From the IMG/VR virus record IMGVR_UViG_3300014501_000004, positions 1 to 63,590 of that record: a DNA stretch of 63,590 nt; one strand, written 5' to 3'. The notes beneath the pieces were generated by a model. That model worked only from the letters and a program-made list of their open reading frames with translations, was not told the origin of the DNA and searched no databases. Made by a program: the position numbers and the translations under genes. Of this stretch, positions 38,936 through 58,024 are shown one piece after another. Within the stretch, counting starts at the first letter, position 1; every line of letters starts with the position of its first letter. This stretch comes from a virus. Lineage: Duplodnaviria; Caudoviricetes.

Positions 38936-39511
38936 TTAAGATCTCGGATTGACTATTGTGTAAGGCGAGATATCGATAACGTGCAGGCGCGTGGCGCGGC
39001 CTCCACTGTTCGCGTCGTACACCATCCACATATTACCCGACACCTGATATTCCAGAGCGATGACATGATGCGGTCGAACGCCGGCCATGTGCGGGGCAGC
39101 TACCGTTCTTTTGAAAGCATACCACGCTCGCGCCAGCCACGGAGCTGCACGAGCACTGCCCAACAGGCGAACCGCGGCGCCGCAGGCGCAGAATGCCGAG
39201 CGCGGACAGCCGGCCGGATGCTCGACGATCGTGGCTTCGCGCTGCACGACAGGAACTGCTCTGCGGGTGACCGGCGCGGATCGCAGGGCGTGGCGTTTCG
39301 GCGCTACCCCGCCGATTCCAAGCTCTCTCGCGACGTACTTACCGCGCGCCACGCGCTGATTCTCGCGTACCGCGGAAGGCGAAGTAGGCGCTATGCAAGG
39401 CCACAGGATGTTGCACATCGGATGCAGGCCGGTCGAGACGTGCCGCTGTCGGGCTTCAACGCCGCTTGAAAAAAGTCCGAGGAAGATCGCCGTCAGAACG
39501 AGATACTTCAT
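38936..39511 (-). CDS. Secreted CHAP/NlpC-P60-like protein
   Basis: Signal peptide; GCPRSAFCACGA, RPHHV, YDANSG. Confidence 0.6.
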   Translation of the reverse strand: MKYLVLTAIFLGLFSSGVEARQRHVSTGLHPMCNILWPCIAPTSPSAVRENQRVARGKYVARELGIGGVAPKRHALRSAPVTRRAVPVVQREATIVEHPAGCPRSAFCACGAAVRLLGSARAAPWLARAWYAFKRTVAAPHMAGVRPHHVIALEYQVSGNMWMVYDANSGGRATRLHVIDISPYTIVNPRS

Positions 39512-39701
39512 GTGATGCTCCTGTCAGATTTCTTCGATCGTCACGCGATAGGTTTTGTCCCGCTTTAATTCGCCGCGGGACCGTAAAAGGTTCAGTAAAA
39601 TGTGTTCATCTTGTGAATTGGGTGCCGATTCGACGGTCAGCAATATCTTGGAAATACCGTTGCGGGGCACCACCGCGGCAGCTTTTGCTTCGAACCGCAT
39701 G

Positions 39702-40016
39702 TCAGTGCTTCGGCACGTTGGCGAGCTTCAACTCGGCGACGCCTTGACTGATGTACTTGGTTTCCTGTTCCAGGATCGTAATCGAATTTGTCATCGCATC
39801 TTGCCGACTCACTACCATTTTATTGTCGATACGAATGCTCTCCAGTTGCTCAGTCAGGGTAGCCATCTTACTTGTCGCCAACATGTAACCCGAAATGAAA
39901 CCGCCTGTAGCCACCACCACCGTGACAATGGACGAGATTGACCCGATCGCCACGAGGCTAAATCTGGCAAAGCGCTTGCCATTGGACGAGACCTCTACTG
40001 TTTTATCGTCGAGCAT
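39702..40016 (-). CDS. TM plus coiled-coil protein
   Basis: Single hydrophobic helix then heptads. Confidence 0.6.
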   Translation of the reverse strand: MLDDKTVEVSSNGKRFARFSLVAIGSISSIVTVVVATGGFISGYMLATSKMATLTEQLESIRIDNKMVVSRQDAMTNSITILEQETKYISQGVAELKLANVPKH

Positions 40017-40258
40017 TTGGCGATCGTCTCCCGTTGCACATCGTTAGACAAACGCAGCGCTCGTTCCAAATGTTGCCCATCCAGCGCCTTCACCGCTTCA
40101 TTGATCTGATCGCAGTTCGGCGGCGGGACGGGCTCGGTTTTGTTGTGCCTGTGATGAGGGCGATAGTGTGGCTCCCACGGCCAGCGAAACGTCGAGGCAT
40201 CTGCCGTCGAGGCGGCCACCAAGATCAAAAGCGTGATCGCAAAAGGGCGCATCATCAC
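39995..40258 (-). CDS. Signal-peptide protein
   Basis: AITLLILVAASTADA; two Cys. Confidence 0.6.
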   Translation of the reverse strand: MMMRPFAITLLILVAASTADASTFRWPWEPHYRPHHRHNKTEPVPPPNCDQINEAVKALDGQHLERALRLSNDVQRETIAKCSTIKQ

Positions 40259-40656
40259 CGCCTCGGCAGGCTATCAACCTGCGCCTGCAGACGATGGAGT
40301 TGATCGGATGTATTCGCCACCTGCACGGATAGGCCGCTCTGGATCGCATTTGTTCTGGACTGCTCGTCCACCATTTTGCTGATCTGGACCCAGACTTTTA
40401 CCTGTCCGTCCTTCAATTCGGCCAATCCGTCGTGCTGGTTTATTTGAAGTGCGGCCAAACCATCCCGTTGCCCGGTTCTCAGATCATTGATGACCCAGCC
40501 CAGTCCTCCAATCGTAATCGTAAAGAGAGCAGGCATCACGAAACGGGCAACCGAGATCATGACCGTGGAGTCGATGATCTTTCGGAACGGCGCATCGCTA
40601 GCCGGTACGTTTACGGTATCCTGCGGAGCGTGGTTATCTGGCATTCCATCGGCCAC
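40255..40656 (-). CDS. TM plus coiled-coil protein
   Basis: Single TM then heptads. Confidence 0.6.
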   Translation of the reverse strand: MADGMPDNHAPQDTVNVPASDAPFRKIIDSTVMISVARFVMPALFTITIGGLGWVINDLRTGQRDGLAALQINQHDGLAELKDGQVKVWVQISKMVDEQSRTNAIQSGLSVQVANTSDQLHRLQAQVDSLPRR

Positions 40657-40659
40657 AAT

Positions 40660-40959
40660 TCACCCGCTCCCGACGTTGCTGTTTTCCTGAGACGGATCGT
40701 TGTGCGACGTGGCGCGATCAAGCCACTTTTGCGTTTCTGCGTCGCTCCAGCCGGGAACAGCGAAGCCCTCGGTCGCAAGCGCGCTCGCCGCCTCGCTATG
40801 GCTCATGCCGGTCGCCATCTTGGCGCCAATGGCCGAGGCTACCTGCCCGACGATGTTGCCGACAACCCCGCCGACCTGAATTAGCGACGGGATGAGCGAC
40901 AGCAGCAGGCTCCATTCGGCCGGCGACATCGCTGCAATGAGGCCGAGCAGCCCGATCAT
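40660..40959 (-). CDS. Hydrophobic hypothetical protein
   Basis: Tightly packed ORF. Confidence 0.6.
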   Translation of the reverse strand: MIGLLGLIAAMSPAEWSLLLSLIPSLIQVGGVVGNIVGQVASAIGAKMATGMSHSEAASALATEGFAVPGWSDAETQKWLDRATSHNDPSQENSNVGSG

Positions 40960-40960
40960 A

Positions 40961-41293
40961 TCAGCCGCCCTGCTTGATCAGCTGCTCGATTTCGAGCACG
41001 CGGGAGGGGATGTCAGTACCGGGAGCGGTCAAGGTCATGGCGAGTGCCGCGGCCGACTGCGGCAGACCTTGCTCGGTGACAAGTTTCATCACGAGTTCGT
41101 TTTCTACCGCGGGGTTGCCAGTGAACTGCAGGAGTTGCGAGCAGATTGCCATTTCCGCCGACTGGTTCGGATTCGACGCGAGGCCGATGCTTTGCAAGAT
41201 GCTCGGCATGGAGGTAGACGAGACGCCAGCGGCAGTCAGTGCCGTGGTAAGGCCGGATAAGGTTGATCCGACAGAAGTCCAATTGATAGCCAT
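40961..41293 (-). CDS. Hypothetical protein
   Basis: AAGGA RBS before MAINWTS. Confidence 0.65.
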   Translation of the reverse strand: MAINWTSVGSTLSGLTTALTAAGVSSTSMPSILQSIGLASNPNQSAEMAICSQLLQFTGNPAVENELVMKLVTEQGLPQSAAALAMTLTAPGTDIPSRVLEIEQLIKQGG

Positions 41294-41579
41294 ATTCTTA
41301 TTTCCTTGCGGCGGTTGAAATTGCCCGGCAACCGGCAGGCTCGGGTTTAGCGATTGGTGATGGAAGCGCGAATCATCATGGCGGGGACCGTCGCGATCGA
41401 AGCCCGGCATCACGGCGTTTTCTGCTGCGCACTGACCACCGCAAACGCGGCATTGAGTGCGTCGAGGACAACTTTCGCCAGTGCCTCGTCCGGCACCATG
41501 GAGCTATCGAACGAGCTGTAATCGTTGATAGCGACTCGTGCCGCGGCAACAGCCGCGTCGATAGCTTCCTGGCTTGGAG

Positions 41580-41945
41580 TCATTTGGTTACCTCGTTGGC
41601 TGCGGCGACGATCGCGGTTTTGGTTTCGGGCGGGATCGGGGTGTTCGGATCTTTGACGGCAGCGAGTACCGCTGGGGCCTGATTGGTGACCTTGGCCGAA
41701 TTACTGGCGAATCGGGCCATGACCGCGCCGATGATCGGAAAGGCAACCACGAGGATTTGCCACATCGACGTCGCACCGTGAACGACCTGGCTGAGTCCGT
41801 TGAAAATCTCGTTCAGGGCGTCGGTGAAGCCCTTTTGCTGCGCGGCCGACATCAGGCCGATGCCACCGACGAACCCTGCGGCGATACTGGCATAGTTCCG
41901 TCCCGAGGCCAGAAGCCTGCCGACCGTCTCGCTTGATAGCGCCAT
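41580..41945 (-). CDS. Holin-like membrane protein
   Basis: Two hydrophobic segments directly after the endolysin; AAGGAG RBS. Confidence 0.5.
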   Translation of the reverse strand: MALSSETVGRLLASGRNYASIAAGFVGGIGLMSAAQQKGFTDALNEIFNGLSQVVHGATSMWQILVVAFPIIGAVMARFASNSAKVTNQAPAVLAAVKDPNTPIPPETKTAIVAAANEVTK

Positions 41946-41997
41946 GTGATGCTCCTTACGGTTGCGGAAACTGCCACATTTACCGGAACCCGGCAAG

Positions 41998-42624
41998 TCA
42001 GAAGGCCAGGTAGACCGCCTTCCAGCGCCGCAGCCACGTAATCCGGTCGGAAAGGCCCGTGTAGCCGCCGTTCAAGTGCTTGGTAACCATGGCGATATTG
42101 TCGGCCTTGGCCCACGGCAGGCAGCCGCACAGGATGAAATCGGCCACCCCACATTCGAGGAACCAGTGGGGGTCGTTGACGAGATCCGGGGTCTTGAGAA
42201 GGTCGAGGTTCAGCTTCGCGCCAAGAGCCTTGTAGCCGTCGTGCCCGGTGGTCTGGGTCGCGCCCCGGCCGCGGTAATTCCAGCCGTCGTTCGAGTTGGC
42301 CGCGTTGCCCATTCTACCCCCATAGACCTTGTTGGCGAGCAGTTGCGGGTTGTGGGCGTAGGGGATCGCAGCGTTGACGTTCGGGAAGCGCGAAGGCCAC
42401 ACCTCGCACATCCTGGGCGCCGAGTAGTTCAGGTTCTCGACCACCTCCATCCCGGCGTTACATTCGAGACTAATCTGCGCCATCAAGTGCGCGATCACCA
42501 GCGAAGGCTCGATTCCGTATTTCGAAAATACAGTCGGCGCGGCCCGGGCGATGCCGTCGCGCAGGCCGGGGATCAGCCGGTCGCCCTCGGGCCAGAGGTT
42601 GTAAAGGGAGTTGATGAAGGCCAT
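41998..42624 (-). CDS. GH19 (chitinase-like) endolysin
   Basis: AQISLE, ENLNY, YRGRGATQTTG, LNGGYTGLSDR. Confidence 0.9.
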   Translation of the reverse strand: MAFINSLYNLWPEGDRLIPGLRDGIARAAPTVFSKYGIEPSLVIAHLMAQISLECNAGMEVVENLNYSAPRMCEVWPSRFPNVNAAIPYAHNPQLLANKVYGGRMGNAANSNDGWNYRGRGATQTTGHDGYKALGAKLNLDLLKTPDLVNDPHWFLECGVADFILCGCLPWAKADNIAMVTKHLNGGYTGLSDRITWLRRWKAVYLAF

Positions 42625-42845
42625 TATTTTTTCTCCGGTTCGTCCTTCGGCTTTTCCAGTTCCTTGATCTTGGCGTTCGCCTTGGCGAGTTCGGCCTGCA
42701 CGCCGATCAGGCTGGCGCTGCAGTTCAACCCGCCTTGGATTTCCTGCATCAGCTTTGCGCCGAGGGCTTGCTCGCTTGGCGTTTGTTGCTGGGCCAGCGC
42801 GGATGTTGCCGTCAACAAAGCTAGCCCGATGATAAATGCTCTCAC
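42624..42845 (-). CDS. Signal-peptide coiled-coil protein (copy 2)
   Basis: MRAFIIGLALLTATSALA/QQ. Confidence 0.75.
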   Translation of the reverse strand: MRAFIIGLALLTATSALAQQQTPSEQALGAKLMQEIQGGLNCSASLIGVQAELAKANAKIKELEKPKDEPEKK

Positions 42846-43029: not shown

Positions 43030-43260
43030 TCATTCCTTTTTCTCCGTCGGCTTGGTTTCCAGTTCGCTGATCTTCTTTTGGGCGTCCGCGAGTTGCTTCT
43101 GTAAGCTCTCGATCACCCTGCCCTGCTGCACCAGCGTCTGTGCCCATGTGCCGATCACGCCGTTGATTTGCAGCGCGGTTTCGGGAGGGGAAGGCTGGCC
43201 CTGTTGGGCGAGCGCAGGAAGTGGCAGCAGGAGGATCAGGCCGGCGATGAATGCTCTCAC
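43030..43260 (-). CDS. Signal-peptide coiled-coil protein (copy 1)
   Basis: MRAFIAGLILLLPLPALA/QQ; shares a 28-bp repeat with copy 2. Confidence 0.75.
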   Translation of the reverse strand: MRAFIAGLILLLPLPALAQQGQPSPPETALQINGVIGTWAQTLVQQGRVIESLQKQLADAQKKISELETKPTEKKE

Positions 43261-43312
43261 TTGCGGTTCTCCAGCTTTGCGATGCGGGTTTCAAAATTGT
43301 CGTTTTCGCCTT

Positions 43313-46300
43313 TTAGCTGCATGTACCACCTGTTCCTGTTGCTGCCGTGATGATTCCACCCTTGATCGTGATACTAGCGATAACTGTTAACGCGCCAGAG
43401 CATGTCACGCCCTTTGTGCCGCCAGCATAGAATACCGTACCAGCAGAGATTTCCGCGCCGCCGTAGATTGCGCCAAGTGCACCCAATCCACCACTTAATG
43501 TTATAGAACCCGTCGAAGTTGATGTAGAAGCCACCGTTGAACCAAATTGTATGGAGCTATCGACATATTTGATATTGATCGCATTGCCGACTGCAAAGTT
43601 ATATAATGAAAAATCGGTGGAGGCATTACTACCGCCGATCAGCGAAGAAAGTTCGCCGACACCCCAACGCGCGGTGCCATTGCGGTAAAAGGTTAATGCA
43701 CTGCCACTGCCTGTACCGCTTGAACCGTACAAGTTTATATTATTATTTTGGCTATTCGCAGTTCCACCGGGACCCATGTTAAAAGCATTCCCGTAGCCCG
43801 TCAGTGTCACAACACCAGAAGCACTGAGCGACGTAAACGATCCTGCCAGTGGCGTTGTGGCACCGATGATGACATTGTTGATATTGTTACCGCCTCCCGA
43901 AATTGTTCCGCCAAGCGTGAAGGCAGGGATAGTACCGGCAGATGAGGGTGAACCAAGCGCGCCACCGTTGACGACGAATGATCCGGCAGTCCCGACATTT
44001 ATGCCGAGCGCGGTCAAAGTCCCGGTGCCGGTCGTTATTGTAGACGACGCTTGCAAACCGCCGCCAATCACAAGGGCATTGGAGGTTAGAGCAGCGGCGC
44101 TGGTAACGCAGGTAGCGCACCCGATGGTGCCGGTGGTCGTGATTGTGCCACCAGTGATCGGGCTTGTGGTCGCGATGCTGGTTACGCCCGTCCCGGTAGG
44201 TGTGCCCCACGTCCCATCGCCGCGCCAGAACGTCGAAGATGACGCGGATGTGCCGCTGTTCAGATTGGTCACGGGAAGATTGCCGGTGACGTCGGCCGAG
44301 AGGGAAACCGCGGTAAAGGATGGGATGCCCGCAGCATTGCCATGTAGAACCGTCGTGGTCGTTCCGAGCGAGCCTAGCGTAGCTGGTGTCGTTCCAGCGC
44401 CGCCGCCAACCATAAGCTGATTTGCGGCCAGTAGTGCCGAGGATGCAATCGTGGTCGCGCCGCTAAAATAGGGAATGCCGCCGCTGGTGCCGGAAGCAAT
44501 ACCCGTGCCCCCGCGCCCGACAGCAAGCGTACCTGTCCATCCCGCAGTGATCGACGCTGCTGCAAGCAATGCCGTGCTTGGCGATCCACCAAGCGTCAGC
44601 GTGACGTTGGTGTCGTCAGTTTTGGTAAGCGCTGCGCCGCTGGTGATCGCCGATGCCGGGCACGAAAGCGCCCCCGCCGCCGTCAGCGCGCATCCGGTGA
44701 TCGACTTCGGTAGCGGATCGGCGCCAGTCTGTCCAACTACCAGTTGCCCATCGGTCATCGCGGCCGTCGCATTGAGTGCGGCGGTGCCTTCGCCAATCAA
44801 AATGCCGCCTAAAAGTATTGTCCTGCGCCCTGTCCCCCCCTGGTTAACAGGCAACGCATTCCCAAGCGCGAGAGAGTCGATATATTGCCCGCCCCAATAT
44901 GCACCCTCGGTGCCGGACAGAACACTGTTGGCATCGGAGTACATGGTGCCGCTGCCATCTGCGATCAGGTTCTGGAACGAATAGGTATCGCCAGCTGCTG
45001 GAAAGGTGCTTTCCAGCCTAATCATGGAACGGCTATAGCCGTTCGTCGCCGCTAACTTGGATGTTAGCGTGCCGTTGACTGTAACGCTGCGCGCAGCAAC
45101 TACCTTAAGCCAGTCGCGCTGATAAAGCGTGCCGTTTCCAAGGCCCCAAGCGTTACCGCCGATAATCTGAAGATTACCGAATTTGTAGGTGGCTCCGACG
45201 AGAAAATCCGCGCCGGTGTTGGTGGTGTTCCAGTTGCTCTCGCCGTGCGGCGCAACAAACGTCACCGAACCGACAGGCGTTCCGGTGCTCGGACCGTCAA
45301 GCGTGACTGATCCGGCCTGGGTGCCGCCTTCGGATGCATACTGCACATTGTTGAACTGGACCGAAAGCGGGTCGCCTTGAATCTGGATCGCTGTGCCGAC
45401 CGATATAAATTGCCCATCATCCATCACGATAGGGCCGGAGTTGGTCAGTGATCCACCACCATTTCCGATTGCCAGTGCAGGCGCTACTTGAGCGTTACCA
45501 TAGTTGTTAATACCAACAATCTGCCCGCTGCCTTGAATTGAGTACGCGGACCCCGTACCGAGTGCAAAAGCAATGGTGTTTTCGAGCGTGCAGAAGATGC
45601 AATTCCAAATGCGAATGCCGATGCCAGTGCCGTTGGCATCGGCACGAAGATTCTTGATGATGATGTTGTTGACGCTGCCGCTACCGATGTTGGAGAAAAT
45701 GTCGATGGCGTTGACGTTGTTGGGGGACGTTATTACCGATCCGGGCTGCGTAAAAGATGGAGTGCCAGAGCCATCTCCAAGCAATGTCAGCCCTGCAACA
45801 TCCTGCACGATAACGTTGCCTGCATATCCACCTGTCGTGGTACAAGCGGGAAAATAAACAATACCTTTAGACGGGGCGGCGGCGGCAATTGCTGCAGAAA
45901 ACGCAGTGGTATTGGCCGCGGCAGAGGCCGCGCATGACGCACCGTAGCCGACGACGTTAAACACATTTTGTGCGTTTGTCCCCGGCGGCAGCACGTTTGT
46001 ATTTCCAAGCACGCCGTTGTTGTTATAAAATAGGTACTGATTGATGCCACCTCCTATCGTCGTGACGCCAACCTGAAGGCCCGCGATCGTGCCGCCCGGC
46101 GTGTAGCAGGTGCCGTTGGCACATAGTTGCAAGGGTTGCGGAGTATCTGTTCCGTAATTTTGCAGCGTGATCCTGCCGCCGCCGGTATCGGTGACGCCCA
46201 TGCACAACGTCTGTCGGCCCGCCGCCGTGATCCGTTGGGAGTTAGTGCAGATGCCGTTGAATCCGTTGTTCGTCACCCCGAACGACGAGATCGGGCTGTC

Positions 46301-46450
46301 GGCCGACGTCACGCCGCCGCCGATCACGCCGGACGAGATGTACCACGGCACGGTGTTCGGCGTGACGTTGCCCGACTGCACGACAGATTTCTGCTGCGCG
46401 AACGCCGCGGTCGACAACAGCGCAAATACAAGAGCAAGGCGCAGACGCAT
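43313..46450 (-). CDS. Tailspike/tail-fibre-like protein with beta-helix region and N-terminal signal peptide
   Basis: [15 protein letters not shown]...GIVYFP pectate-lyase-like start; Gly/Thr/Ser fibre repeats (LAVGRGGTG). Confidence 0.8.
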
Positions 46451-46452
46451 GA

Positions 46453-46941
46453 TTACGATCCTATCGAGAGGTCGATTCCGACAGCATAAATGTCAGCCGT
46501 CGCAGGCACGCCCTGCGGCGTCGTCAGCGAGAAGATGATCTGACTGGTCGGCAGCAACGCGGTCGAAAATCGCGCCGACAAAGCAAACGCCGTCAGCGTC
46601 GCGTTCAGCAACAGGTTCGCAGTCGTCAGCGCCGAGTACACCTGCCCGGCCGCCACGATGGCGCTTCCCGCTTTCGAGAACTGCGGATAAAACCCGCCGA
46701 CCGCCGTCGTCAGCGAGACCGAGGCATTGGTGATGATCAGCCCGGTAAGCTGGAAAGCAGTGATGGTATTCGGGATATTGATCGGCTGATCGCCCGTGTT
46801 GTTGAAGTCGGCGCCTTGCAGGACGGCCAGCACGCGCTGGGACGCAATCTGCGGGCCGGCGTCGGCGATCACACCGGACGTGATCCACTTCGCCAGATGA
46901 CCGGGAGTGACGTTGCCTGACTGCTGTACGGTGCCGCCCAC
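46453..46941 (-). CDS. Putative tail structural protein
   Basis: GTG start overlapping the upstream TAG; N-terminus VQQSGNVTP similar to the tailspike. Confidence 0.65.
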
Positions 46942-47234
46942 TATTTTCTCCGAACGATCCAGTTGATGGCCAGGATGAGAATTCCGTACAGCGTCAGCGA
47001 CGTGATCTGGTACACGTCGGGTTTCGGCGTCAGGAACCAAAGGTAGAAACACGAAGCGATTGTCAGCAGGCTGAACAGGTCGGTCGCCGCCGTCAGCGCC
47101 CGCTGCGACAGCGCCTTCAGCCCGATGGTCAGCATGGCGATCGCCACGCCGTTATCGGGTGCGGGCGGAGGTTTTACCGCTTCAGTTTCCGTTCCGCCGA
47201 CTATCTCGAAGCCCGGGTTCGTCGCTGCCATCAT
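46941..47234 (-). CDS. Membrane protein
   Basis: Two C-terminal TM segments. Confidence 0.65.
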   Translation of the reverse strand: MMAATNPGFEIVGGTETEAVKPPPAPDNGVAIAMLTIGLKALSQRALTAATDLFSLLTIASCFYLWFLTPKPDVYQITSLTLYGILILAINWIVRRK

Positions 47235-47448
47235 GGTTCTCCGCGGTCGTGATCCGGTCGGCAAAATTGCCGAAATTGGGTAGTCCGTCGTCAGAGTCGT
47301 CCTTGCCGAGCCCCTTCATCTTCTGGACGTAATAGGGCACCAGCGCCTTGAAGGCGTCGATCTTGATGTCGAGGTCGGTCGCTTCGTTCCGCGCACCCTT
47401 GGCGATCTCGGTGGCGAGAGCGTCCATTTCCTCGATGAAGGCGGTCAC
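47182..47448 (-). CDS. Hypothetical protein
   Basis: GTGA overlap with the upstream gene. Confidence 0.6.
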   Translation of the reverse strand: MTAFIEEMDALATEIAKGARNEATDLDIKIDAFKALVPYYVQKMKGLGKDDSDDGLPNFGNFADRITTAENHDGSDEPGLRDSRRNGN

Positions 47449-49571
47449 GGTCCTTGCCTCTGATCCATCGCCTCGCCTGCGGATTGCCCGCCCATAGCCC
47501 CCAGTCTAGCACTCATGCCTGCGATATTGCCAGCTTGGTCCGCTTTCGGGTTGACTCGGGGCGAAATCACGCCGCTTCGCAGCATTTTAGCGGCATCTTC
47601 AGGTACGTTCGTCGTGAACAATATTTGGGAAATTCGCTCGTTCAATTTTGGATTTTCCTTGGTATCAAGGGTTCGCATGAACGACCACGCTCCCTTGAGA
47701 ACTCCCATCATATTGCCGCTTGCCACTTGCCCGGCCATCTTGCCCATGTGCAACATGGCCTCGTCATTCGAAGCGGATTCTTCAGCAAGCCGCCCTGCTG
47801 TTGGGGACATGCCGACCATCCGCACTCCTCGATCAAACATTTGTCGTTCGGTCGTTACTGCATCCACGAAATGGTCGTAGTCAGACCTGTTCTCGAAAAC
47901 TGGACGCAACAGTTTTTCGGTCCAGTTGTTTCGCACCAGTAGTTTCGCCTCGTCGGCGTTGAAGCCTGCACGGCCAATTTTCTCGCGCATAATGTCAGCG
48001 ACGCCCATGCGAAAGAACTCACGATCGCCTGGAGACATTGTTTTTATTTCTGCAGCCATTTCTTCGGGGTTCGCTTTGAAAACGGCTTTCCCCATCTTAA
48101 CCGCATCCATAGCAGAGGAATACCCCGCCCACGTCTGGCGAGCCTTTTTATAAAGACCAGAAGTATCGGCTTGGTCGATGGCTTCGACATACGCTTTTCG
48201 TAATCCGTTGAGCGAAACGCCTTCTTCGCTTAATCGCCCGGTAATAGGATCGCGCGCAGCCGAGACCGCCGCGTCCAATCCCTTCTTCGCCATGTTAAGT
48301 AGGCGCATGTTCGGGACACCTAGTATTTTGGTGCTTCCGTCAATACCGATATCGACACCCATCTGACTCGCAGTAATAGGATGCCCTTCGGCAAGCGAAT
48401 CCCGGCTTTCCAGTTCGTAGCCTTTCTGCAACCCCTTTTTAAGATCGGGATGATCGAAGAACTGTTGCAGTCGCGGGCTCCACACGTTCTGCAACTTGTT
48501 GACTTCTTCGTAAAGCGGGCGTGACGCTGTTGTCCGCGCTTCCAAAAGCCCTTGAGTAGCCTGAAAAGCGGTCGGGCCAGATGTAACGTATTGGGAAATA
48601 TCCTGATCCAGTCGAGCGGCAGCCTGCGGGTCTCTGCCCTCTTTGCCGCGCAAAAACGCTTGCGCTACCGCACGTGAATCTCCCGGCTGCCGAGCAACGT
48701 GCCCGGCCAGCCCCTCCACGTTGCCGCCTTCGATGCCGGTGTCGAATAACGCAATCGGCTTGCTGGCGGCGTTAACGAGATCGAGTGCATCAGCCGCTGA
48801 CGGCCCGCCCGCCTTGGCATCCTGCTTGAACTGCTTGAGAATATTGACCACCGCATCTGACGTCAAATTGTCGGGATGGGTTCGTGCGAGATAACTGCCC
48901 CAGCCGGTCAGCGCGCCCGCCGCAGCGCCGCCCGCGCCGCCAATCGCACCGCCTAGCATGCTGCCGAGGCCTAACTCAGCCAGCTTCTTCTTAGCAAACT
49001 GTTCAGGATTGGATTCGGGCATCAACACGCCCGCAACGCCGCCACCCATTGTCCCGGCTGCCGTTGTCTCAGTGGCCAACTTCAGCCCCGGACTAAGCAC
49101 GCGACGTGCAAGGGGCTCGACAATTACTTCGCCAGTTTTAGCGCCGAGCCCGCCCATCAGGAAATTAGCGGGGCTCAATATCTCGCCGGTCATGCGCGCC
49201 CAATCGACATTCTTGCTACCACCGCGTTCTTTCTGGATTTGCTCCTCGCGTTCTCTGGTAAATTGATCGATCTGATCCGTTGTCGGAGGGGTATGAACAT
49301 GTTCCCCACGCGATTCGCGTTTTGCTCGTATTTTTGCATCGCCGGGAGTATCGCCCGGCAAGACGTGCGCGCCCAATTGCCCCAAGCCGATCAACGGATC
49401 TTCCATGCCGCGGCCAAATTGCTGCATCGTTGTAGTTTTATCGCGATGCTCTTCGGCGTAAGACTTCATCGCCTTGTCTACGGCAGTCATGGGGGTGCCT
49501 GCGGGGAACTCGTGTTTCACCCCGTCGGCAGTTATGATGGGTGCGTTTCCGTCGTAGACGTCATCCGCCAT
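47445..49571 (-). CDS. Putative DNA ejection/internal virion protein
   Basis: 708 aa, helical, Gly-rich hydrophobic patch; podovirus synteny. Confidence 0.6.
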   Translation of the reverse strand: MADDVYDGNAPIITADGVKHEFPAGTPMTAVDKAMKSYAEEHRDKTTTMQQFGRGMEDPLIGLGQLGAHVLPGDTPGDAKIRAKRESRGEHVHTPPTTDQIDQFTREREEQIQKERGGSKNVDWARMTGEILSPANFLMGGLGAKTGEVIVEPLARRVLSPGLKLATETTAAGTMGGGVAGVLMPESNPEQFAKKKLAELGLGSMLGGAIGGAGGAAAGALTGWGSYLARTHPDNLTSDAVVNILKQFKQDAKAGGPSAADALDLVNAASKPIALFDTGIEGGNVEGLAGHVARQPGDSRAVAQAFLRGKEGRDPQAAARLDQDISQYVTSGPTAFQATQGLLEARTTASRPLYEEVNKLQNVWSPRLQQFFDHPDLKKGLQKGYELESRDSLAEGHPITASQMGVDIGIDGSTKILGVPNMRLLNMAKKGLDAAVSAARDPITGRLSEEGVSLNGLRKAYVEAIDQADTSGLYKKARQTWAGYSSAMDAVKMGKAVFKANPEEMAAEIKTMSPGDREFFRMGVADIMREKIGRAGFNADEAKLLVRNNWTEKLLRPVFENRSDYDHFVDAVTTERQMFDRGVRMVGMSPTAGRLAEESASNDEAMLHMGKMAGQVASGNMMGVLKGAWSFMRTLDTKENPKLNERISQILFTTNVPEDAAKMLRSGVISPRVNPKADQAGNIAGMSARLGAMGGQSAGEAMDQRQGP

Positions 49572-51639
49572 CTTTTATTCTATTTCCTTCTTTGTCGTAC
49601 CTGATGGTCTGCCCCTCGAAAGACTTCGGAGTTTCCATGGTAGTGCTTATGTCTTTGGCGGAACCCATGACCATCGCGCGCACCGCGTCTGGCGACGCAA
49701 TCGCTGCTTCCATTTCCTTGTTCATGATATTAAGCACGCGCTTATAGGCTTCAGGACCATCTACCGTTCCTAACAAACTATAGGCATGCCTGCGAATATC
49801 GTCGGTCGGCACACCCGTTGGCATAATGGCGCGTGAATACTGTTGAACCAAAGCGTTGTTAGCCACCGCAAACTCTTTCAGATCCGGATCGGATGTACCG
49901 TGCTCGACCATTTGCACAAACTCATTGAACTTGACGATTTTGGTGCGCGGCACTTTATCGGAAGCATCCTGCGCGATCTTCATGAATTTTTGCGCTTCGA
50001 CCGCGGCCTGTTTGATTGCGACTGATCGAAGGGACAACGATCGTAACGCCGTGCGCGTTCCCTGATAATCAGCACTCGACAATGCTAACGTTTTTCCAAG
50101 CTGATCTGTGGATATCGTAGCAGCATTATCGACCATCTCATCATCCCAATCGGGATGTTGCTTTTTAATATCCGCTCGCGATGTCGTTTTCGCAGCTTCA
50201 ACCATGGAATCAGCAACTTCCTGCCGCACAGCAATTCGATTAGCCGGGTTAAGCCCGACCATTCCGGAATTGTCACCCGCTTTGACTTGCCCGGCAATTA
50301 CCTTGCGTGCCTTGTCGTCGAGCAAGCCTCCGGTACGAGCAGCGGCAACGCCGGTACGCGCGACATCAAATATTTTGTCCTCGCTCCAGTCGGGATGTTC
50401 TTTTCGCAATTCTTCCTTGCGCCGATTAACCTCGGCGCTATCAATCCGCGTCAAAGAACCGCGGCCTTCCTGCTGTGCAGCTTTAACGCCCTTCATTGCC
50501 TTGTCAAAAGCTTCGCTGGGGTCCATACCCGCATCGATATCCTTCTGCGCGCGCCTGCTTATTTCCTGTCCTGCCAATTTCGACTCGGTAATCATCCCTC
50601 CGGTCGTTCCGTGCACTCCGGTCAATCCCGCCTGTTGCAGCATCTTCGCGTCTTCTTCCGGAGGAGGCTCCTGCCCGTCGTGCGAGTCTCGCCAAGACTG
50701 TTTTGCAGCCTGATACATCTCGGTATTCGGCCCCTTCGGCGAGAACTGCTGATAAATATCCACGAGCCCGTCGACAAATCCCGGCTCCTTCGGACTGTGC
50801 TGGGTCCAGTAGGTGCCCATCGCCGTCTGCAATGGCGTGCCGGTTTCCTTGCCTCCCGAGAGCGCCTGATGCACTTTCGTAGCTAAAATCATCTTGTCGT
50901 GCGCTTCGTCGCCCGTGTTCGGCGGGTCGGCAACGATTGCTTTTATCGCCGCGCGTTGGAAGCTGCTATCCGTGATCGTATCGAGCGACTTCTGCATCTG
51001 CTCGGCAGCGTTTGCCCGCGCCGTCTGCAACTCGAACAATTCCTTGACCATGCCGTGCTCGGCCAGCATCAGGGTTTGCGAGTCGCCAAAGCGCGTAGCC
51101 GAGTTGCGCAGTTTTGCGGTTGCCGCCGCCTGGTCGTGATCCATCAAGCCGAGCGCGTCCTGATAAAGATCATGCTGCATCTTCCAGCGGTCGATCGCGA
51201 GCTTGGTGTTGTCCTTCCACGACTCGTGTGCGCGCTGGTAAGCCGCTTCATCGCCCGCCTTGATCGAGTTGATCGCGCCCGCCATGCCGTTGATGGCGTT
51301 TTCCATCGGCGCCTTGGTGAAAGCGGACGCCACCATGGCGAACAGGCCGCCGACGCTGCCGAAGCCTTCGATCGGGTTTTCCTCGAACTTCTTGTGTTCC
51401 TTGTCGGCGTCCCATGGCTTCAACTCGTCGTGGCCGACACCCTCGGCAGTATAAGCGCGTTCGACCCGCGCCTGATCGCGGTCCAACTGAACATCAGCCT
51501 TGCGGGTGATTGCGAAGTCTTCCGCGGTGCGCGCCCGTTGCGAGGCAACGAGGTCAGAAATAGACGACTGATCGCTACCGACGATCGAGCCGATGTCGGG
51601 CGAGGGGCTTGAAGTATCTTGCGGCTGGGTGTCAGGCAT
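49561..51639 (-). CDS. Putative DNA ejection/internal virion protein
   Basis: 692 aa, helical; repeated HPDW motif; synteny. Confidence 0.6.
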   Translation of the reverse strand: MPDTQPQDTSSPSPDIGSIVGSDQSSISDLVASQRARTAEDFAITRKADVQLDRDQARVERAYTAEGVGHDELKPWDADKEHKKFEENPIEGFGSVGGLFAMVASAFTKAPMENAINGMAGAINSIKAGDEAAYQRAHESWKDNTKLAIDRWKMQHDLYQDALGLMDHDQAAATAKLRNSATRFGDSQTLMLAEHGMVKELFELQTARANAAEQMQKSLDTITDSSFQRAAIKAIVADPPNTGDEAHDKMILATKVHQALSGGKETGTPLQTAMGTYWTQHSPKEPGFVDGLVDIYQQFSPKGPNTEMYQAAKQSWRDSHDGQEPPPEEDAKMLQQAGLTGVHGTTGGMITESKLAGQEISRRAQKDIDAGMDPSEAFDKAMKGVKAAQQEGRGSLTRIDSAEVNRRKEELRKEHPDWSEDKIFDVARTGVAAARTGGLLDDKARKVIAGQVKAGDNSGMVGLNPANRIAVRQEVADSMVEAAKTTSRADIKKQHPDWDDEMVDNAATISTDQLGKTLALSSADYQGTRTALRSLSLRSVAIKQAAVEAQKFMKIAQDASDKVPRTKIVKFNEFVQMVEHGTSDPDLKEFAVANNALVQQYSRAIMPTGVPTDDIRRHAYSLLGTVDGPEAYKRVLNIMNKEMEAAIASPDAVRAMVMGSAKDISTTMETPKSFEGQTIRYDKEGNRIKDGG

Positions 51640-51642: not shown

Positions 51643-52992
51643 TCAGCCCTGACTGAGCTGAATATTGGTGCCGCCGACATTGGCGTTGGTCTTCCCGTTC
51701 AACGCCGCCGCCAGCGTGGCGATGGCCTTGCCGGTGTTCGCCGCCTGCGTCGTGTCGTTGGCCACCAGCGCCTGATAAAGCTGCCCGGAGAGCCCGGCCG
51801 CGCTCTGGCCGGCGCTGACGAGGCTGGAGCCGGACGAGAACAGCTGCGAGGCCACCTGCGAGATCATCTGCGGCTCGGAAGCATCGATCTTGGCCAATGT
51901 CGTGGCGAGCGCGGTATTCTTGGTCGGGTCGGTCGGCAGGCCCTGCGCCGCGGCGTTGGCAATTGCCGAGGTTTTTGCGTCCGCGATGGCCTGCTGCACT
52001 TGCGTCATATACTGAGGTGGCAGCGTGCCGCTGGTCAAATACTGCTGCAACGCCTCGCCGGAAGCCACCATATTATTCGAGTTGGCGGTCGCGGTCGCGG
52101 CGTCAGCGGACAGCGCTTTCTGGTTGGCCGTATCCTGCGTACCTTTATAGATATTGTACCCGAGCCCGGCGGCACCAAGAGCGACGGGAATCGGGTTCTT
52201 GGTCAGAGAATCGATAGCGCCGGAACCGGCGTTGCCAAGCAGGCTGCTGATCGAGGTGCTGCCGGATGCTGCGCCGGTTCCCGTCGCGCTGCCGCCGCCT
52301 GCCACATTGGCGGCCCCGCCCGCCGCGGTTGGATCGACACCCGTAGCCGGAGCCACACCTGCGGGAGCCGAGACGGATGGCGCACCGGCAGCTGCCGGCT
52401 GCGCCGCCGAACCCGCAATCGGGGTAGTTCCGGTGTTGAATACCGAGTTGGGGTTCCCGGTAACCGCCGTGGTCCCCGGACCGACAGACGGATTGAACCC
52501 GGTTGTTCCGGTCGCCCCAACTAACGCATTGAGCGGGCTTTCCGGGCTTACGATCCCGCTAATGCCGCTGGCAAGGCCGGAAGAAGCTGCCTGACTGGCC
52601 GCAACATCCGCCCCGCTGGCCGCCGCACCCGTGCCCAGCAGCTGTCCGCCTGTGCTGGCAGCGCCGCCCAGAAGCGATGCATCCGGAGCAGCCAGGAACG
52701 ACCCCGCCGTGTCCAGAGCCGTGCCGCCGGTCCCGACCAGTGAGCTGATCCCTGTTCCGGCGCCCGCAGCCAAGCCTGTACCTTCGAGGCCAGTAGCACC
52801 GCCCGCAAGGCCAGCCCCCGTGCCCACGAGATCAGCCAGCCCGCCAGCTCCTGCACCAGCACCGCCGACAGCCGAACCCAATCCAGCCCCGGCTTCCCCG
52901 AGGCCAGCCCCAAGGTCAGCCCCTCCCGCTTCGGCAGCCGGGGCGATAAGATCCCCAAGCCATGAAAGTCCTGCGGCGACGACATCACCCAC
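51643..52992 (-). CDS. Putative DNA transfer/ejection protein
   Basis: Gly/Ala-rich, first of three; synteny. Confidence 0.6.
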   Translation of the reverse strand: MGDVVAAGLSWLGDLIAPAAEAGGADLGAGLGEAGAGLGSAVGGAGAGAGGLADLVGTGAGLAGGATGLEGTGLAAGAGTGISSLVGTGGTALDTAGSFLAAPDASLLGGAASTGGQLLGTGAAASGADVAASQAASSGLASGISGIVSPESPLNALVGATGTTGFNPSVGPGTTAVTGNPNSVFNTGTTPIAGSAAQPAAAGAPSVSAPAGVAPATGVDPTAAGGAANVAGGGSATGTGAASGSTSISSLLGNAGSGAIDSLTKNPIPVALGAAGLGYNIYKGTQDTANQKALSADAATATANSNNMVASGEALQQYLTSGTLPPQYMTQVQQAIADAKTSAIANAAAQGLPTDPTKNTALATTLAKIDASEPQMISQVASQLFSSGSSLVSAGQSAAGLSGQLYQALVANDTTQAANTGKAIATLAAALNGKTNANVGGTNIQLSQG

Positions 52993-53002: not shown

Positions 53003-53452
53003 CTACAAGACGATTGTATACACCAGATCGTGTAAAACGCCACCCAGCCGCTCGAACAGCACCCCGTGATCCTGCCCCGCCTTGGTCCGGAAAGTAACGG
53101 TATGTGCTCCCTTTTCTTTCATCGCCGCCTTGACCTTCTTGAGCATATTGTAACCAGTCCAGCCCTTGCGATATTCGGGAAGCAGGAAGTGAATATCCTC
53201 GGTCGCGCGCATCAGCTTCCGGTAATGCAGATCATTGGACAAAAACATCACGATGTACCCAACCAACCTGCTTTCGTCCCGTGCCGTCATCACCCACAGC
53301 TTGCCGGTTGCTTCCAACCGGTCATAGGCTTCGAAGTCGGGGTCGAGCACCTGCACTTCCTTGAACTGAGCGATCTCCTCGTAATGCCTGCGCACCACCT
53401 CCATGTTCGCCCAGAGTGCGCCGATATTTTCCACCGCGAATTCGGCCATCAC
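53003..53452 (-). CDS. GNAT-fold acetyltransferase-like protein
   Basis: LVGY, FLLPEYRKG, LFERLG. Confidence 0.75.
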   Translation of the reverse strand: MMAEFAVENIGALWANMEVVRRHYEEIAQFKEVQVLDPDFEAYDRLEATGKLWVMTARDESRLVGYIVMFLSNDLHYRKLMRATEDIHFLLPEYRKGWTGYNMLKKVKAAMKEKGAHTVTFRTKAGQDHGVLFERLGGVLHDLVYTIVL

Positions 53453-53916
53453 AACCTCGCATGCGTGACCTTGGTGTCGAACAGCCGGCCCAGCCGCTCC
53501 TCGATCTTGGACTTCGGCACATCAGTGCTCTCGCAGACGATGATGCGCTCGGCGCGCAGCCCGTTGCCCCACGATACGGCAACGTCGTAGAAATCGGCCG
53601 CCAGCTCAGCCTGCTCCTTGTCGTTCTTGTCCTCGACCCAGACGAATCGCTCCTGGATCATCTTGCCGGGCTTCAAGCCCGGCACGTTGACGATCTGGAA
53701 CAATGCCACCGCGTGCGGCTGGTAGAGAAACAGATGCTCGTTATTGGCGATCAGCCCGCGCATCCAGCCGCCGATCCACTGCTCGCTCATGTCGGGGAAA
53801 AGCAATTGCAGACGTTTGAGCACCCAGCCGCCGTGTTGCGACAGGTCGGCAGTGGAAAACCGGCGAACGATAACGGGGACGTGCGGGGCTTGTTCAACGA
53901 GGGCTGCTTCGGTCAT
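53449..53916 (-). CDS. Hypothetical protein, possibly degenerate GNAT fold
   Basis: Adjacent to GNAT gene; weak pattern. Confidence 0.55.
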   Translation of the reverse strand: MTEAALVEQAPHVPVIVRRFSTADLSQHGGWVLKRLQLLFPDMSEQWIGGWMRGLIANNEHLFLYQPHAVALFQIVNVPGLKPGKMIQERFVWVEDKNDKEQAELAADFYDVAVSWGNGLRAERIIVCESTDVPKSKIEERLGRLFDTKVTHARL

Positions 53917-54258
53917 TTACCCGATCTCCAAAATATCTGCGGCTTGAAGGTGCTCGCTCGCGTTGAGAAAGACCCACCCGGCCAATTCGTTCTGATCTTT
54001 CCAGTTCACTTCCGACAAATCGAACCCGCTGATACCGAGCAACAGATTTTGTGCGTTGTGCATCTGCTGATGCTGGTACTCCCATTGCCCGACATTGTCG
54101 ACGTCTACGGGATCGAGACCATACTCCGGAAGCGAGACCGCTACCAGTTCATAAAGCCGCCGGTTGATGTCCCGGTGATGCGCCATGTGCGCGAACGCCC
54201 ACTGCGCCCGCTCGGCGTCGGTGGACGGCACGTTGTAGAGATCGGCAATCGCTGACAT
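53917..54258 (-). CDS. His-rich hypothetical virion-module protein
   Basis: HMAHH, HQQMH, EH in three spaced helices. Confidence 0.65.
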   Translation of the reverse strand: MSAIADLYNVPSTDAERAQWAFAHMAHHRDINRRLYELVAVSLPEYGLDPVDVDNVGQWEYQHQQMHNAQNLLLGISGFDLSEVNWKDQNELAGWVFLNASEHLQAADILEIG

Positions 54259-54259
54259 C

Positions 54260-55465
54260 TCAGCCCCCCGCCGCCGAGCAGTAGTCCACCCACCCGAGGC
54301 AGCCGATCGCAGCACCGGCCGCGCTCGATGTCCAATAGATGTTCGAGCTTTCAAGGCCCATCGGTGCAAACCATGAAGTCGTAGAACCTATGTCTTCGTT
54401 AAACGGCCACATCAATCCGTTCGAACCGGTCGGCCCGTTATTGGCGCCTCCGTAGGAGGCGTTGGGTGCAATCAAGACGTTCGAATTGGTCCCGGCCTTC
54501 CATGTGTTCGTAATCATCGTGTTGATGATCGACGCGGTTGGCGGAACAACGGTGGATATCGAGACCGCTGCCAGCGTGGGACTTGTGGCGCTGTAAGTGC
54601 CGGCAACGCCGCTCGCCATCACCGGAAGCGTCGCCGTGTTGCTGGACGCGTTGACAATGTACTGCGCGTCGCACCCTCTTTGCCGCGAACGCAACAAATT
54701 CGACGACCCGTCGCAAAACATCGCTCCGACGTAAGCATAATACGAATATCCTGCCGGCAAATTAGGAGCGCCGGCTGTCGGCGACGTCAAAGTTCCTAAT
54801 CCTGCGCCGCCCGAACCGGTAGAAATAATATAGAAATAAACCCACCCCCCAGCAGGCCGCGACTCGCCGTCCATGCCATTCGCTGTCGGCGTCACCGTGC
54901 CCGTAGTCAGGTCTACATTGTAAGCTCCGTTAGTTACGAAAACCGGAGCGCCGACCGCCGATACCATGCACGCTTGCAAGAAATTTATATTTGCACTGGT
55001 GCTAGGATTAACTGCGTCGTTAATGATTCTCAACCCGCTTACTGAAGCGTTGGCAGCCGCTGTCAAACCGGTCGCGGGCTGATACGACGACAGCACCCAC
55101 GCGCCGTTTCCTGAGTTATAAGACGCGCCGGTTGTCCATGTGACCTCGTAATACTGCCCCGACGACAGCGTGCCGGAAGTCGCCTGAGATCCAGCCGGCA
55201 CGTAGACCTGGAAAAATCCGAGCGCGAGAACTTCGAGCGTGACCGATCCCGTAGTAGCAGCCGGAGCGAGAAATCCGAACTTCAGTGGGTTGGGCAGGCC
55301 ATACCCGGTGATCGCCGGCTGGTTCGCCGCTGGCGTCAACACAATTTGATTAGTACCGGTCGCCGTGCATAACAACGTCGTCAACGCGCCAACCGCGGCG
55401 AAATTGCCGTCCAGCTGCGCCATCGAGGCGGCGGTCAGGGGGCCGAATGTGGTGGGAAGCGCCAT
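54260..55465 (-). CDS. Tail fibre-like protein
   Basis: QLDGNF N-terminus; LPAGYSY; tail module position. Confidence 0.6.
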   Translation of the reverse strand: MALPTTFGPLTAASMAQLDGNFAAVGALTTLLCTATGTNQIVLTPAANQPAITGYGLPNPLKFGFLAPAATTGSVTLEVLALGFFQVYVPAGSQATSGTLSSGQYYEVTWTTGASYNSGNGAWVLSSYQPATGLTAAANASVSGLRIINDAVNPSTSANINFLQACMVSAVGAPVFVTNGAYNVDLTTGTVTPTANGMDGESRPAGGWVYFYIISTGSGGAGLGTLTSPTAGAPNLPAGYSYYAYVGAMFCDGSSNLLRSRQRGCDAQYIVNASSNTATLPVMASGVAGTYSATSPTLAAVSISTVVPPTASIINTMITNTWKAGTNSNVLIAPNASYGGANNGPTGSNGLMWPFNEDIGSTTSWFAPMGLESSNIYWTSSAAGAAIGCLGWVDYCSAAGG

Positions 55466-57085: not shown

Positions 57086-58024
57086 TCAATATCTACCATA
57101 GGGGTTCGTGGAACGCCCTGGGCGTGCCATTTTTGAATACCCTAGCGTGCGCAAGTCAAACTCGTTCTCGTAAAATTTCGCTGCGTTCCAGTTCTGAAGT
57201 TCCATATAGCATAACTGCGCCGCCATATACGGCACGGCATCGGTCCACGGTTGCGGGATCACTTCCGGAATTGAATTATCCAGCAGCATATCTTGCGGCA
57301 GGCAGAAGCAGTCGTATTCTAGCTGGTACAATTGTGATGGAGGTGGGTAGAAAAAAAATGTGCCAGAATTTCCCTGCCCAAACTGAGAACCGAAGCTCGG
57401 CACGTACTGATAAGTCGCCGATGGGTATTGCCGAATTTGACTCTGATAAGTCGTGAAACTGTAGACTGGAATTGAATACCGATATTCCGAATATATGATT
57501 GACACCCCATGAATAAGGTGAACTGTATCCACCCCCGGCCACGCGCCAAGGTAGATGTCGGAAAAAGCGTACTGCTCCTGCCCCGGATTGAGCGTGTTGA
57601 TCGGTGACAAATTAGCTGTCGCTGACGCACCGACTCCAGGACCGATATCCGTGATCGTAATCAGCGGCTGGAAATATCCGTCGCCGCCATCGAGGATGAT
57701 GACGTCGGTGATCACGCCGCCACTCATCAGCGCCGCAGCGGTTGCCTGCCGTCCTTGCGGATTGGGCAACGCGCCCGACGGCCAGTCCGGTGTGGTGATC
57801 GTCACCTGCGGATTGACATAGCCGCTGCCGCCGCTCACGAGGTTGGTCGAGATGATCTGTCCGGAGATCGGCGTCAGGCGGCGCACCGACTGCGTGCGGC
57901 CGGCGACTTCCCGACGAGCGCGGTTGATGTAAACCAGCAAGTCAGCCGGATTCAAGAACTCCTGCTTCTGCTCGCGAAGGAAGCGCTGGGTTTGCTGGAG
58001 GTATTGAAAAGCATCGACGATCAT
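57086..58024 (-). CDS. Head-tail adaptor with inserted beta domain
   Basis: YINRARRE, IPQPWTDAVPYMAA; GGSGY/GGDGY insert. Confidence 0.65.
   Translation of the reverse strand: MIVDAFQYLQQTQRFLREQKQEFLNPADLLVYINRARREVAGRTQSVRRLTPISGQIISTNLVSGGSGYVNPQVTITTPDWPSGALPNPQGRQATAAALMSGGVITDVIILDGGDGYFQPLITITDIGPGVGASATANLSPINTLNPGQEQYAFSDIYLGAWPGVDTVHLIHGVSIIYSEYRYSIPVYSFTTYQSQIRQYPSATYQYVPSFGSQFGQGNSGTFFFYPPPSQLYQLEYDCFCLPQDMLLDNSIPEVIPQPWTDAVPYMAAQLCYMELQNWNAAKFYENEFDLRTLGYSKMARPGRSTNPYGRY

Follow-up and report, generated by a model that had tools for sequence, protein, structure and literature searches.

Closest described systems

The assembly of tailed phages is taught as a purely cytoplasmic process, and annotation pipelines count a signal peptide against a structural role. 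Gene A (protein P0001) is located on the minus strand of the tailed-phage record IMGVR_UViG_3300014501_000004 (Caudoviricetes), the whole of which, 63,590 bp, is referred to here as the window. It encodes a spike- or fiber-type protein that begins with a predicted Sec-type signal peptide, and a leader of this kind precedes the same N-terminal domain throughout its family. The closest described analogues are the mosaic adhesive trimer (MAT) fibers of Bdellovibrio, followed by the periplasmic β-helix lyases, with ordinary tailspikes coming last.

The MAT fibers of Bdellovibrio bacteriovorus are described as combining a signal peptide, a conserved β-rich N-domain of about 110-130 amino acids (aa), a phage-like trimeric fiber, and swapped tips; a Bdellovibrio fiber of ~1000 aa, placed behind a PelB leader, is reported to have formed fibers (PMC10769870). 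A has the same architecture of leader, N-domain, and variable fiber as the MAT proteins, of which the PDB includes C-terminal parts only. However, the MAT fibers are encoded by chromosomal genes of the predator and are thought to sit on its own surface, whereas A is a core late gene of a lytic-looking phage.

VexL is described as a natural periplasmic β-helix lyase with a signal peptide and several disulfides (PMC6003464), and WceF as a tailspike-like bacterial enzyme (PMC7949094). As in VexL, a signal peptide, a β-helix, and multiple predicted disulfides are found together in A. Both VexL and WceF, however, are host enzymes without a fiber shaft or a phage-specific N-domain, and neither is among the Foldseek matches listed for A.

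Exported phage proteins are known as well. The pIII protein of filamentous phages is an exported, disulfide-bonded receptor-binding protein, and Llp of T5 blocks the receptor of the infected cell. A cleavable signal is also described for RI of T4 (PMC8385771). Like A, these are phage proteins with cleavable signals that act in the envelope, but the phages that encode pIII are assembled at the membrane, both Llp and RI are small and have no structural role, and none of the three is a tailspike-type trimer of a tailed phage.

Canonical β-helix tailspikes (P22/Sf6, LKA1 gp49, CBA120 TSP3, and phi29 gp12) share the β-helix fold with A (Foldseek E values of 2.5e-4 to 2e-3), and the signal-less homologue P0005 is 52% identical to A over the β-helix region. 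Like these tailspikes, A is encoded at the end of the structural module, has a conserved N-terminal part and exchangeable distal parts, and is predicted to form a trimer. Canonical tailspikes, however, have no signal peptide and fold in the cytoplasm, as described for the P22 tailspike (10.64898/2026.09.13.751334), whereas A always comes with a signal and has 7 Cys pairs and an unmatched N-domain. A search of the full-text literature, mostly outside subscription journals, found no report of a tailed-phage fiber or spike with a Sec signal, which is not proof of absence.

Gene A and its leader

The gene, its translation start, and its leader are located as follows.

43313..46450, minus strand: gene A, spike/fiber-type protein with a leader, 1045 aa (open reading frame [ORF] and its translation)
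46459..46462, minus strand: AGGA ribosome-binding site, 8 nt ahead of the ATG of A (read from the sequence)
46397..46450, minus strand: Sec-type signal peptide of A, codons 1-18, with predicted cleavage between AFA and QQ (features of the homologues)

A is present in a single copy in the genome. The TAA stop codon of the preceding gene, B, is followed by 2 nt (TC) and then by the ATG of A. This spacing and the AGGA site bear out the initial annotation, made by a model from the DNA letters without database searches, which considered the start well supported. The leader consists of an MRLR n-region, a hydrophobic core, and the AFA-QQ cleavage site, so that Q19 is the predicted new N terminus; with Q at position +1, it has no lipobox.

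A true start downstream, which was named at the outset as something that would undo the interpretation, is not found. The stretch from the leader to the conserved N terminus contains no ATG or GTG in frame; the sole alternative start is a TTG at codon 12, within the leader itself, and the mature part has its first Met at residue 84. Thus, a signal-less isoform that keeps the conserved N terminus cannot come from internal initiation, and every molecule with this N terminus is made with the leader.

Conservation of the leader

A word-indexed search with A yielded 60 proteins, including the query. In 46 of them, the same mature N terminus is found within the first 200 residues, and a leader stands ahead of each. 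The remaining 14 include two truncated proteins (P0055, which begins inside the N-terminal motif, and P0002, which begins inside the β-helix), eight proteins without a leader, and four (P0008, P0014, P0015, and P0025) that have other N-domains behind their own signal-like leaders. These four are tail-fiber-like, so exported fiber-like proteins are not confined to the N-domain family of A. One family member, P0004, is a miscalled long ORF in which the leader is internal.

The leaders of the 46 homologues are 18 to 27 residues long. The net charge of the n-region is +2 in 38 of them and +1 in the other 8, an uninterrupted run of 11 to 20 apolar or small residues is found in all 46, and only one leader contains an acidic residue. 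With the cleavage site chosen by a heuristic and not by a signal-peptide predictor, position -1 is A or S and position -3 is A, G, or S in 46/46. An alignment of 40 sequences shows at least 90% conservation of A16, A18, and Q19; the hydrophobic core diverges in sequence but keeps its character. Consecutive Arg residues were seen by eye in 5/46 leaders, and the extended motif of Tat signals, S/T-R-R-x-F-L-K, is found in none of the 46.

To remove bias from the leader, a profile was built without it, using 10 sequences of the mature N-domain taken from the window and from nine loci. In a set of 1.84 billion cluster representatives, this profile matches 958 at E values of ≤1e-3, 576 at 1e-10, and 108 at 1e-30. 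Among the best 150 of the 958, the N-domain starts at residues 20 to 29, except in nine entries with longer upstream extensions, all of which have an internal Met and a leader immediately before the N-domain; in none of these 150 does the N-domain stand at the protein's own N terminus. The best 150 include 125 new representatives, and a signal-like segment is found directly ahead of the N-domain in every one. A test of hydrophobicity and charge (best 8-residue Kyte-Doolittle mean of at least 2.0) is passed by 124 of them, and the 125th, MKLKLALAFTFSLWGFPALAQS, lies 0.09 below the hydrophobicity threshold. The signal is thus conserved, as the initial annotation had suggested checking, in every homologue with a complete N terminus.

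P0260 has a fragment of the B N terminus fused upstream of a leader and an A-type domain. P0008 contains a tail Collar domain and a Peptidase_S74 chaperone domain.

Cysteine pairing

A contains 14 Cys residues in 7 close pairs (68/83, 110/115, 173/203, 284/287, 587/597, 778/781, and 1017/1044), in agreement with the several close pairs noticed at first. The number of Cys residues in the mature part is even in 42/45 homologues (P0004 dropped; binomial p = 4.3e-10). The counts range from 4 to 20, and the residues form close sequential pairs despite the unrelated C-terminal modules. An independent set consists of 112 of the 125 new representatives, in which the N terminus was placed by a motif search (13 were dropped); the count is even in 99/112 (p = 7.5e-18), and some of the odd-Cys representatives are short and probably truncated. 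In the 40-sequence alignment, C83 is invariant and C68 nearly so. The second pair of the N-domain (110/115 in A) is present only as a pair.

Leaderless proteins served as controls. Among 120 members of the B family, 0, 1, and 2 Cys residues are found in 81, 36, and 3 proteins, respectively, and the leaderless β-helix homologues P0003, P0005, P0006, P0007, and P0010 have 4, 5, 1, 7, and 4 Cys residues that look unpaired. The leader-bearing proteins with other N-domains (P0008, P0014, P0015, and P0025) have 14, 11, 12, and 14 Cys residues in their mature parts. Paired cysteines thus track the leader, as predicted for oxidative folding outside the cytoplasm. The leader and the even Cys number are two independent family-wide signatures, and together they strongly support export.

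Domain architecture and predicted structure

The mature part of A can be divided into the following segments.

46301..46387, minus strand: shared N-terminal motif, residues 22-50, common to the N terminus of B (alignments), with residues in the predicted trimer interface
46061..46396, minus strand: conserved mature N-domain, residues 19-130, with C83, C68, and the pair 110/115 (alignment and profile search)
44921..45973, minus strand: right-handed parallel β-helix, pectate-lyase-like or tailspike-like, residues about 160-510 (AlphaFold2 and Foldseek)
43316..44920, minus strand: Gly/Thr-rich fiber-like repeats and C-terminal region with three Cys pairs, residues about 511-1045 (predicted local distance difference test [pLDDT] score, <50)

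The AlphaFold2 model of A, built from a 59-row alignment, has a mean pLDDT of 57.9. It shows a helix at residues 2-15 (the leader), low confidence at residues 16-50, and a β-rich N-domain at residues of about 54-120, with block-mean pLDDT values of 71-85 over residues 61-120. In the β-helix, the block mean exceeds 90 in most 10-residue blocks. Foldseek matches of the β-helix include glycan enzymes (GH87, AlgE4, GH28, and related ones) as well as tailspikes (LKA1 gp49, CBA120 TSP3, the Sf6 tailspike, and phi29 gp12), with E values from 1e-5 to 3e-3. The PF12708 domain is found in the homologues P0006, P0007, P0014, P0015, and P0025, and A itself has no Pfam match at E values of ≤0.01. Residues 711-743 of A match fiber-like proteins from uncultured phages.

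Three copies of the mature N-domain are predicted to bind each other with a score of 0.68, compared with 0.00 for the best of 3 controls. This level was reached by 20/30 same-chain-pair structures and 1/23 single-chain structures, counts that hold only roughly for the trimer run, with its own 10-row alignment and three copies. The trimer runs agree in at least 76% of the contacts, with a partner pLDDT of at least 63. The predicted interface includes the first ~20 mature residues, that is, the motif common to B.

After about residue 125, the family splits into many unrelated modules. Such a conserved N-terminal part with hypervariable C-terminal modules is characteristic of exchangeable receptor-binding proteins. 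The N-domain has no match in Pfam, PHROGs, or the PDB sequences and none at E values of ≤1 in 50,697 phage records from GenBank. The search of PDB sequences also retrieved nothing for full-length A or for two proteins of the tail module.

Gene A as a core gene of an uncultured lineage

Eleven related loci were retrieved through A. Their gene order is conserved: large proteins, a small gene, a membrane protein, in some cases variable genes, A, and then the endolysin or another lysis gene. Of the loci with a complete 5' end, 9/9 have the leader in frame; L012 has no 5' end. In L011 (9880-10130), an A-type leader is one base out of frame with the N-domain, which may reflect an assembly error or a broken gene.

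A test of core status relied on a search with an unrelated tail gene (55469..57082), which yielded 30 loci: 9 on known contigs, 10 on 8-38 kb fragments that were left out, and 11 on new records of 53-67 kb. The N-domain profile matches all 11 new records, with the full domain in 9 (E values of ≤5e-16) and only the first 30-69 profile positions in the other two, in open frames of 540 and 775 residues. A leader stands directly ahead of the motif in a large ORF of 11/11. Together with the window and five records of 90-100% estimated completeness (G001 to G005), A and its leader are found in 17/17 near-complete genomes. A is a core gene of this lineage, and it closes the structural operon, after the large putative internal proteins and ahead of the lysis genes.

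The host is probably a diderm, judging from the globular endolysin, the membrane-anchored coiled-coil proteins of the lysis region, the lipoprotein-like gene that follows the holin-like gene of L005, and the leaders of the AxA type. A search of 185,579 species genomes gave a single match, on a 1.9-kb contig of an Acetobacteraceae bin (L013), which starts inside the leader.

Several relatives encode a second leader-bearing family of 414-541 aa (L006:7339-8832, L007:7327-8823, L008:7138-8766, L010:8278-9522, and L011:14783-16102), with a conserved Cys-containing N terminus, a variable remainder, and even Cys counts of 8, 8, 8, 6, and 8. Some of these genes separate the small membrane protein from the A-type gene, and others follow the lysis genes. 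In the window, tblastn found no homologue.

Gene B and the shared N-terminal motif

The gene that precedes A encodes a small protein without a signal peptide.

46453..46941, minus strand: gene B, 162 aa, signal-less, optional (GTG start with GGAGA upstream)

B has no hydrophobic leader, and none was found in any of those inspected among its 441 homologues. Its AlphaFold2 model (pLDDT of 89.6) consists of an N-terminal β-hairpin and a jelly-roll. The fold matches are weak and include the Bdellovibrio fiber tip Bd2133 (E = 6e-3; TM score of 0.43), trimeric capsid cement proteins (E values of ≥6e-3), and unnamed phage proteins; the language-model look-alikes of B are leads only. No match is found at E values of ≤1 in the GenBank phages.

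The initial annotation had remarked that the mature N terminus of A resembles that of B, and the alignments place the common motif at residues 22-50 of A, the only stretch of A-type genes of the relatives that B matches. The motif is thus located at the free N terminus of B and at the N terminus that cleavage would create on A. It may represent a trimer-forming N-terminal element that doubles as a docking element. The motif also behaves as a repeat unit, as a single protein of L057 and of L059 contains it two or three times.

B is present in L003 and L009 but absent from all five complete relatives (G001 to G005), and a B-like small leaderless ORF is found in 5/11 new records. An obligatory adaptor role of B for A was rejected, as B is missing from 5/5 complete relatives.

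Proposed mechanism and alternative explanations

These sequence features give good support to Sec export and cleavage of A, followed by its folding, with disulfides, into a trimer in the periplasm. This part of the original interpretation, export with periplasmic folding, is strongly supported; the part that made the two small genes downstream of A its periplasmic partners is not, as described below. Joining of A to virions at lysis is the favored reading, with a probability of roughly 0.45. It is favored by the core status of A (17/17), its position where tail fibers are encoded, the lineage-specific N-domain, the long fiber part, and the architecture with a conserved N-terminal and a variable C-terminal part.

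In the proposed mechanism, A would be made as a precursor with a Sec signal peptide and threaded unfolded across the inner membrane, and signal peptidase I would cut it after AFA to produce the new N terminus, Q19. In the periplasm of the diderm host, A would then fold, trimerize, and form about seven local disulfides, while the cytoplasm would produce particles that lack fibers. Once the inner membrane is opened by the holin, the trimers would encounter these particles and dock via the N-terminal motif and the N-domain. A would represent the exchangeable receptor-binding, glycan-degrading fiber of the lineage, and its β-helix, before release from the periplasm, could also trim newly made surface glycan in the infected cell. 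Late addition of a spike is mechanistically possible, since P22 tailspikes can be attached to finished heads in vitro. Such a two-compartment assembly, with heads and tails made in the cytoplasm and a Sec-exported, disulfide-bonded spike added when the holin breaches the inner membrane, is put forward tentatively. If it operates, Sec, signal peptidase, and Dsb would be host factors for virion infectivity, and A could strip the receptor of the infected cell beforehand.

Several points weigh against virion attachment. Export, cleavage, and disulfides of A are all inferred. Disulfide networks are described in virions of phage Milano without export (PMC10811340), so paired cysteines alone are no proof of a periplasmic route. 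The N-domain is found in no isolated phage among the 50,697 records, and the only genome match is the short Acetobacteraceae-bin contig. Attachment only at lysis risks dilution of the fibers. Further, the tail module contains a signal-less, variable, receptor-binding-like gene that could encode the real virion fiber. This gene (54260..55465, minus strand) encodes a leaderless 401-aa protein in which the N-terminal ~125 residues are conserved and the remainder is variable; its relatives include a 640-aa frame in G003 and one of 257 aa in L011, it is undetectable in four others, and a language-model look-alike provides a weak Mtd-like lead.

Somewhat less probable, but the main alternative, is that A is exported and matured but never enters the particle, acting late in infection as a periplasmic glycan-degrading or exclusion protein, with the product of 54260..55465 as the true fiber; the initial annotation had named a secreted depolymerase or exclusion factor as its own alternative. 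The targets of such an enzyme would be O-antigen, capsule, or exopolysaccharide still in the making, which it would cut on the periplasmic side. This would keep progeny from sticking to debris and deprive superinfecting phages of their receptor, or it would loosen the glycan layer of the envelope and so help release. The signal and disulfide evidence also fits this explanation, periplasmic β-helix lyases with a signal and disulfides exist, as reported for VexL (PMC6003464), A adjoins the lysis cassette, downstream of a conserved small membrane protein, and further exported, Cys-paired, variable proteins are encoded at the same place in the relatives. However, a free enzyme has no need for a lineage-specific trimer-forming N-domain or for about 500 residues of fiber repeats, and A is found in every near-complete genome, whereas accessory genes, such as B and the second exported family, are sporadic. 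In addition, the N terminus of mature A reproduces the one found on B, a cytoplasmic protein of the phage, and this points to a common role in docking or assembly on the phage side. An arrangement like that of the MAT fibers, in which A would be exported and then held by its N-domain on the envelope or surface of the infected cell as an adhesin or shield that might, for instance, tie infected cells to new hosts or block receptors, seems unlikely. It would account for the combination of a signal peptide, a β-rich N-domain, a trimeric fiber, and variable tips (described for MAT fibers in PMC10769870), and the weak resemblance of the B jelly-roll to the Bd2133 tip points the same way. Yet the sequence offers no route across the outer membrane and no lipobox, and the family is essentially confined to phage contigs (1 match in the 185,579 species genomes).

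Least probable of all is that the leader is not a working signal but a structural helix or a start-codon artifact, with A remaining in the cytoplasm and following ordinary tail assembly. Tailed-phage fibers are not known to be exported, no case was found in the full-text literature searched, and the leader was judged by heuristic features. Against this, the start is fixed by the ribosome-binding site and the operon spacing, with no downstream start that keeps the conserved N terminus; the leader retains the features recognized by Sec and signal peptidase (a basic n-region, a hydrophobic core, and AxA followed by Q) while its sequence drifts; and the even-Cys signature is specific to signal-bearing proteins.

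This widespread lineage of uncultured phages (hundreds of 50%-identity clusters) has, among its core genes, one for a tailspike-type protein that combines a universal export signal with a disulfide signature. If A is part of the virion, this would represent a new assembly route, in which Sec and Dsb functions determine phage infectivity and host range. If it is not, A would belong to a new class of core, fiber-shaped periplasmic phage effectors that act on envelope glycans. In either case, the family might be a source of naturally periplasm-foldable, disulfide-stabilized depolymerases.

Neighboring small genes and the lysis region

The genes on both sides of A and B include the following.

46941..47264, minus strand: small conserved membrane protein, with hydrophobic segments in the translation; likely start at 47231, as homologues align from residue 12
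43030..43260, minus strand: 76-aa protein with a signal peptide and a coiled coil, beginning with MRAFIAGLILLLPLPALA followed by QQ (cleavage between ALA and QQ); weak coiled-coil Pfam matches
42624..42845, minus strand: 73-aa paralogue with a signal peptide and a coiled coil, beginning with MRAFIIGLALLTATSALA followed by QQ (cleavage between ALA and QQ), from its translation
41998..42627, minus strand: GH19-like endolysin (phrog_181, E = 3e-45), start of the lysis cassette

Homologues of the small membrane protein are found at the same position in 9/11 related loci. The gene that comes next, which often encodes a signal peptide, has its start overlapped by the stop codon of the membrane protein gene. 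The role of this small protein could be that of an anchor, an exclusion protein, or a membrane protein of the ejection type.

The 76- and 73-aa proteins are tandem paralogues, each with a short coiled coil and a Lys/Glu-rich tail, encoded just upstream of the endolysin. They do share the ALA-QQ cleavage site, as initially noted, and are possibly lysis-related. However, neither has a homologue among the ORFs of the 11 related loci (BLASTP, E values of ≤1e-4), where the endolysin or other genes directly follow the spike gene; the endolysin does so in L002, L004, L005, and L011. These two proteins were accordingly rejected as conserved partners of A.

The rest of the lysis region (38936..41996, minus strand) is dense in envelope proteins. 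It encodes a holin-like protein with two transmembrane segments (41580..41996), two proteins with an N-terminal transmembrane segment and a coiled coil (40255..40656 and 39702..40016), a signal-bearing, proline-rich protein of 87 aa without a lipobox (39995..40258), and a conserved signal-bearing, Cys-rich protein of 191 aa (38936..39511) with homologues in most relatives, all on the minus strand.

Genome and late gene order

The window corresponds to a complete virus record, which has direct terminal repeats. A DNA comparison with the GenBank phages found no close relative, and the capsid protein and one tail protein match only 2 uncultured records, at 28-35% identity. The genome encodes a major head protein (60962..62008; phrog_9953), a weak match to the large terminase (3125..5071), a primase/helicase, and a separate helicase; no tRNA genes were found in the window.

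The late genes are on the minus strand, with the capsid first and then the tail module, followed by these groups.

59050..60246, 57086..58387, 55469..57082, 54260..55465, 53917..54369, and 53449..53916, minus strand: tail-module genes, in this order
51643..52992, 49561..51639, and 47445..49571, minus strand: three large family-less proteins, after the tail module
47182..47448 and the membrane protein at 46941..47264, minus strand: two small genes, after the large proteins

B and A come next, followed by the two small signal-bearing coiled-coil genes, the GH19-like endolysin, and further membrane or exported proteins. The large family-less proteins upstream of A are putative internal proteins. 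In T7-like podoviruses, the gene order is head, tail, large internal proteins, fiber, and lysis; that of the window is similar, which is a resemblance only. Apart from one unnamed PHROG, Pfam and PHROGs have no match for A, B, the small membrane protein, or the large upstream proteins. A scan for promoters and terminators around A found sites no more commonly than in shuffled sequence.

In one of the putative internal proteins (49561..51639, minus strand; 692 aa), residues 474-508 resemble the Rv0078B-related antitoxin family (PF18993, E = 1.2e-8), a short match that passes the Pfam threshold. The early region, on the minus strand, encodes a Dam-like methyltransferase (12525..13010), a resolvase-type recombinase (10683..11360), and a TPR protein (7173..8624). 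It also includes an NAD-dependent sugar epimerase/dehydratase (11527..12534; PF01370, E = 2e-34), which could have a role in glycan or DNA modification.

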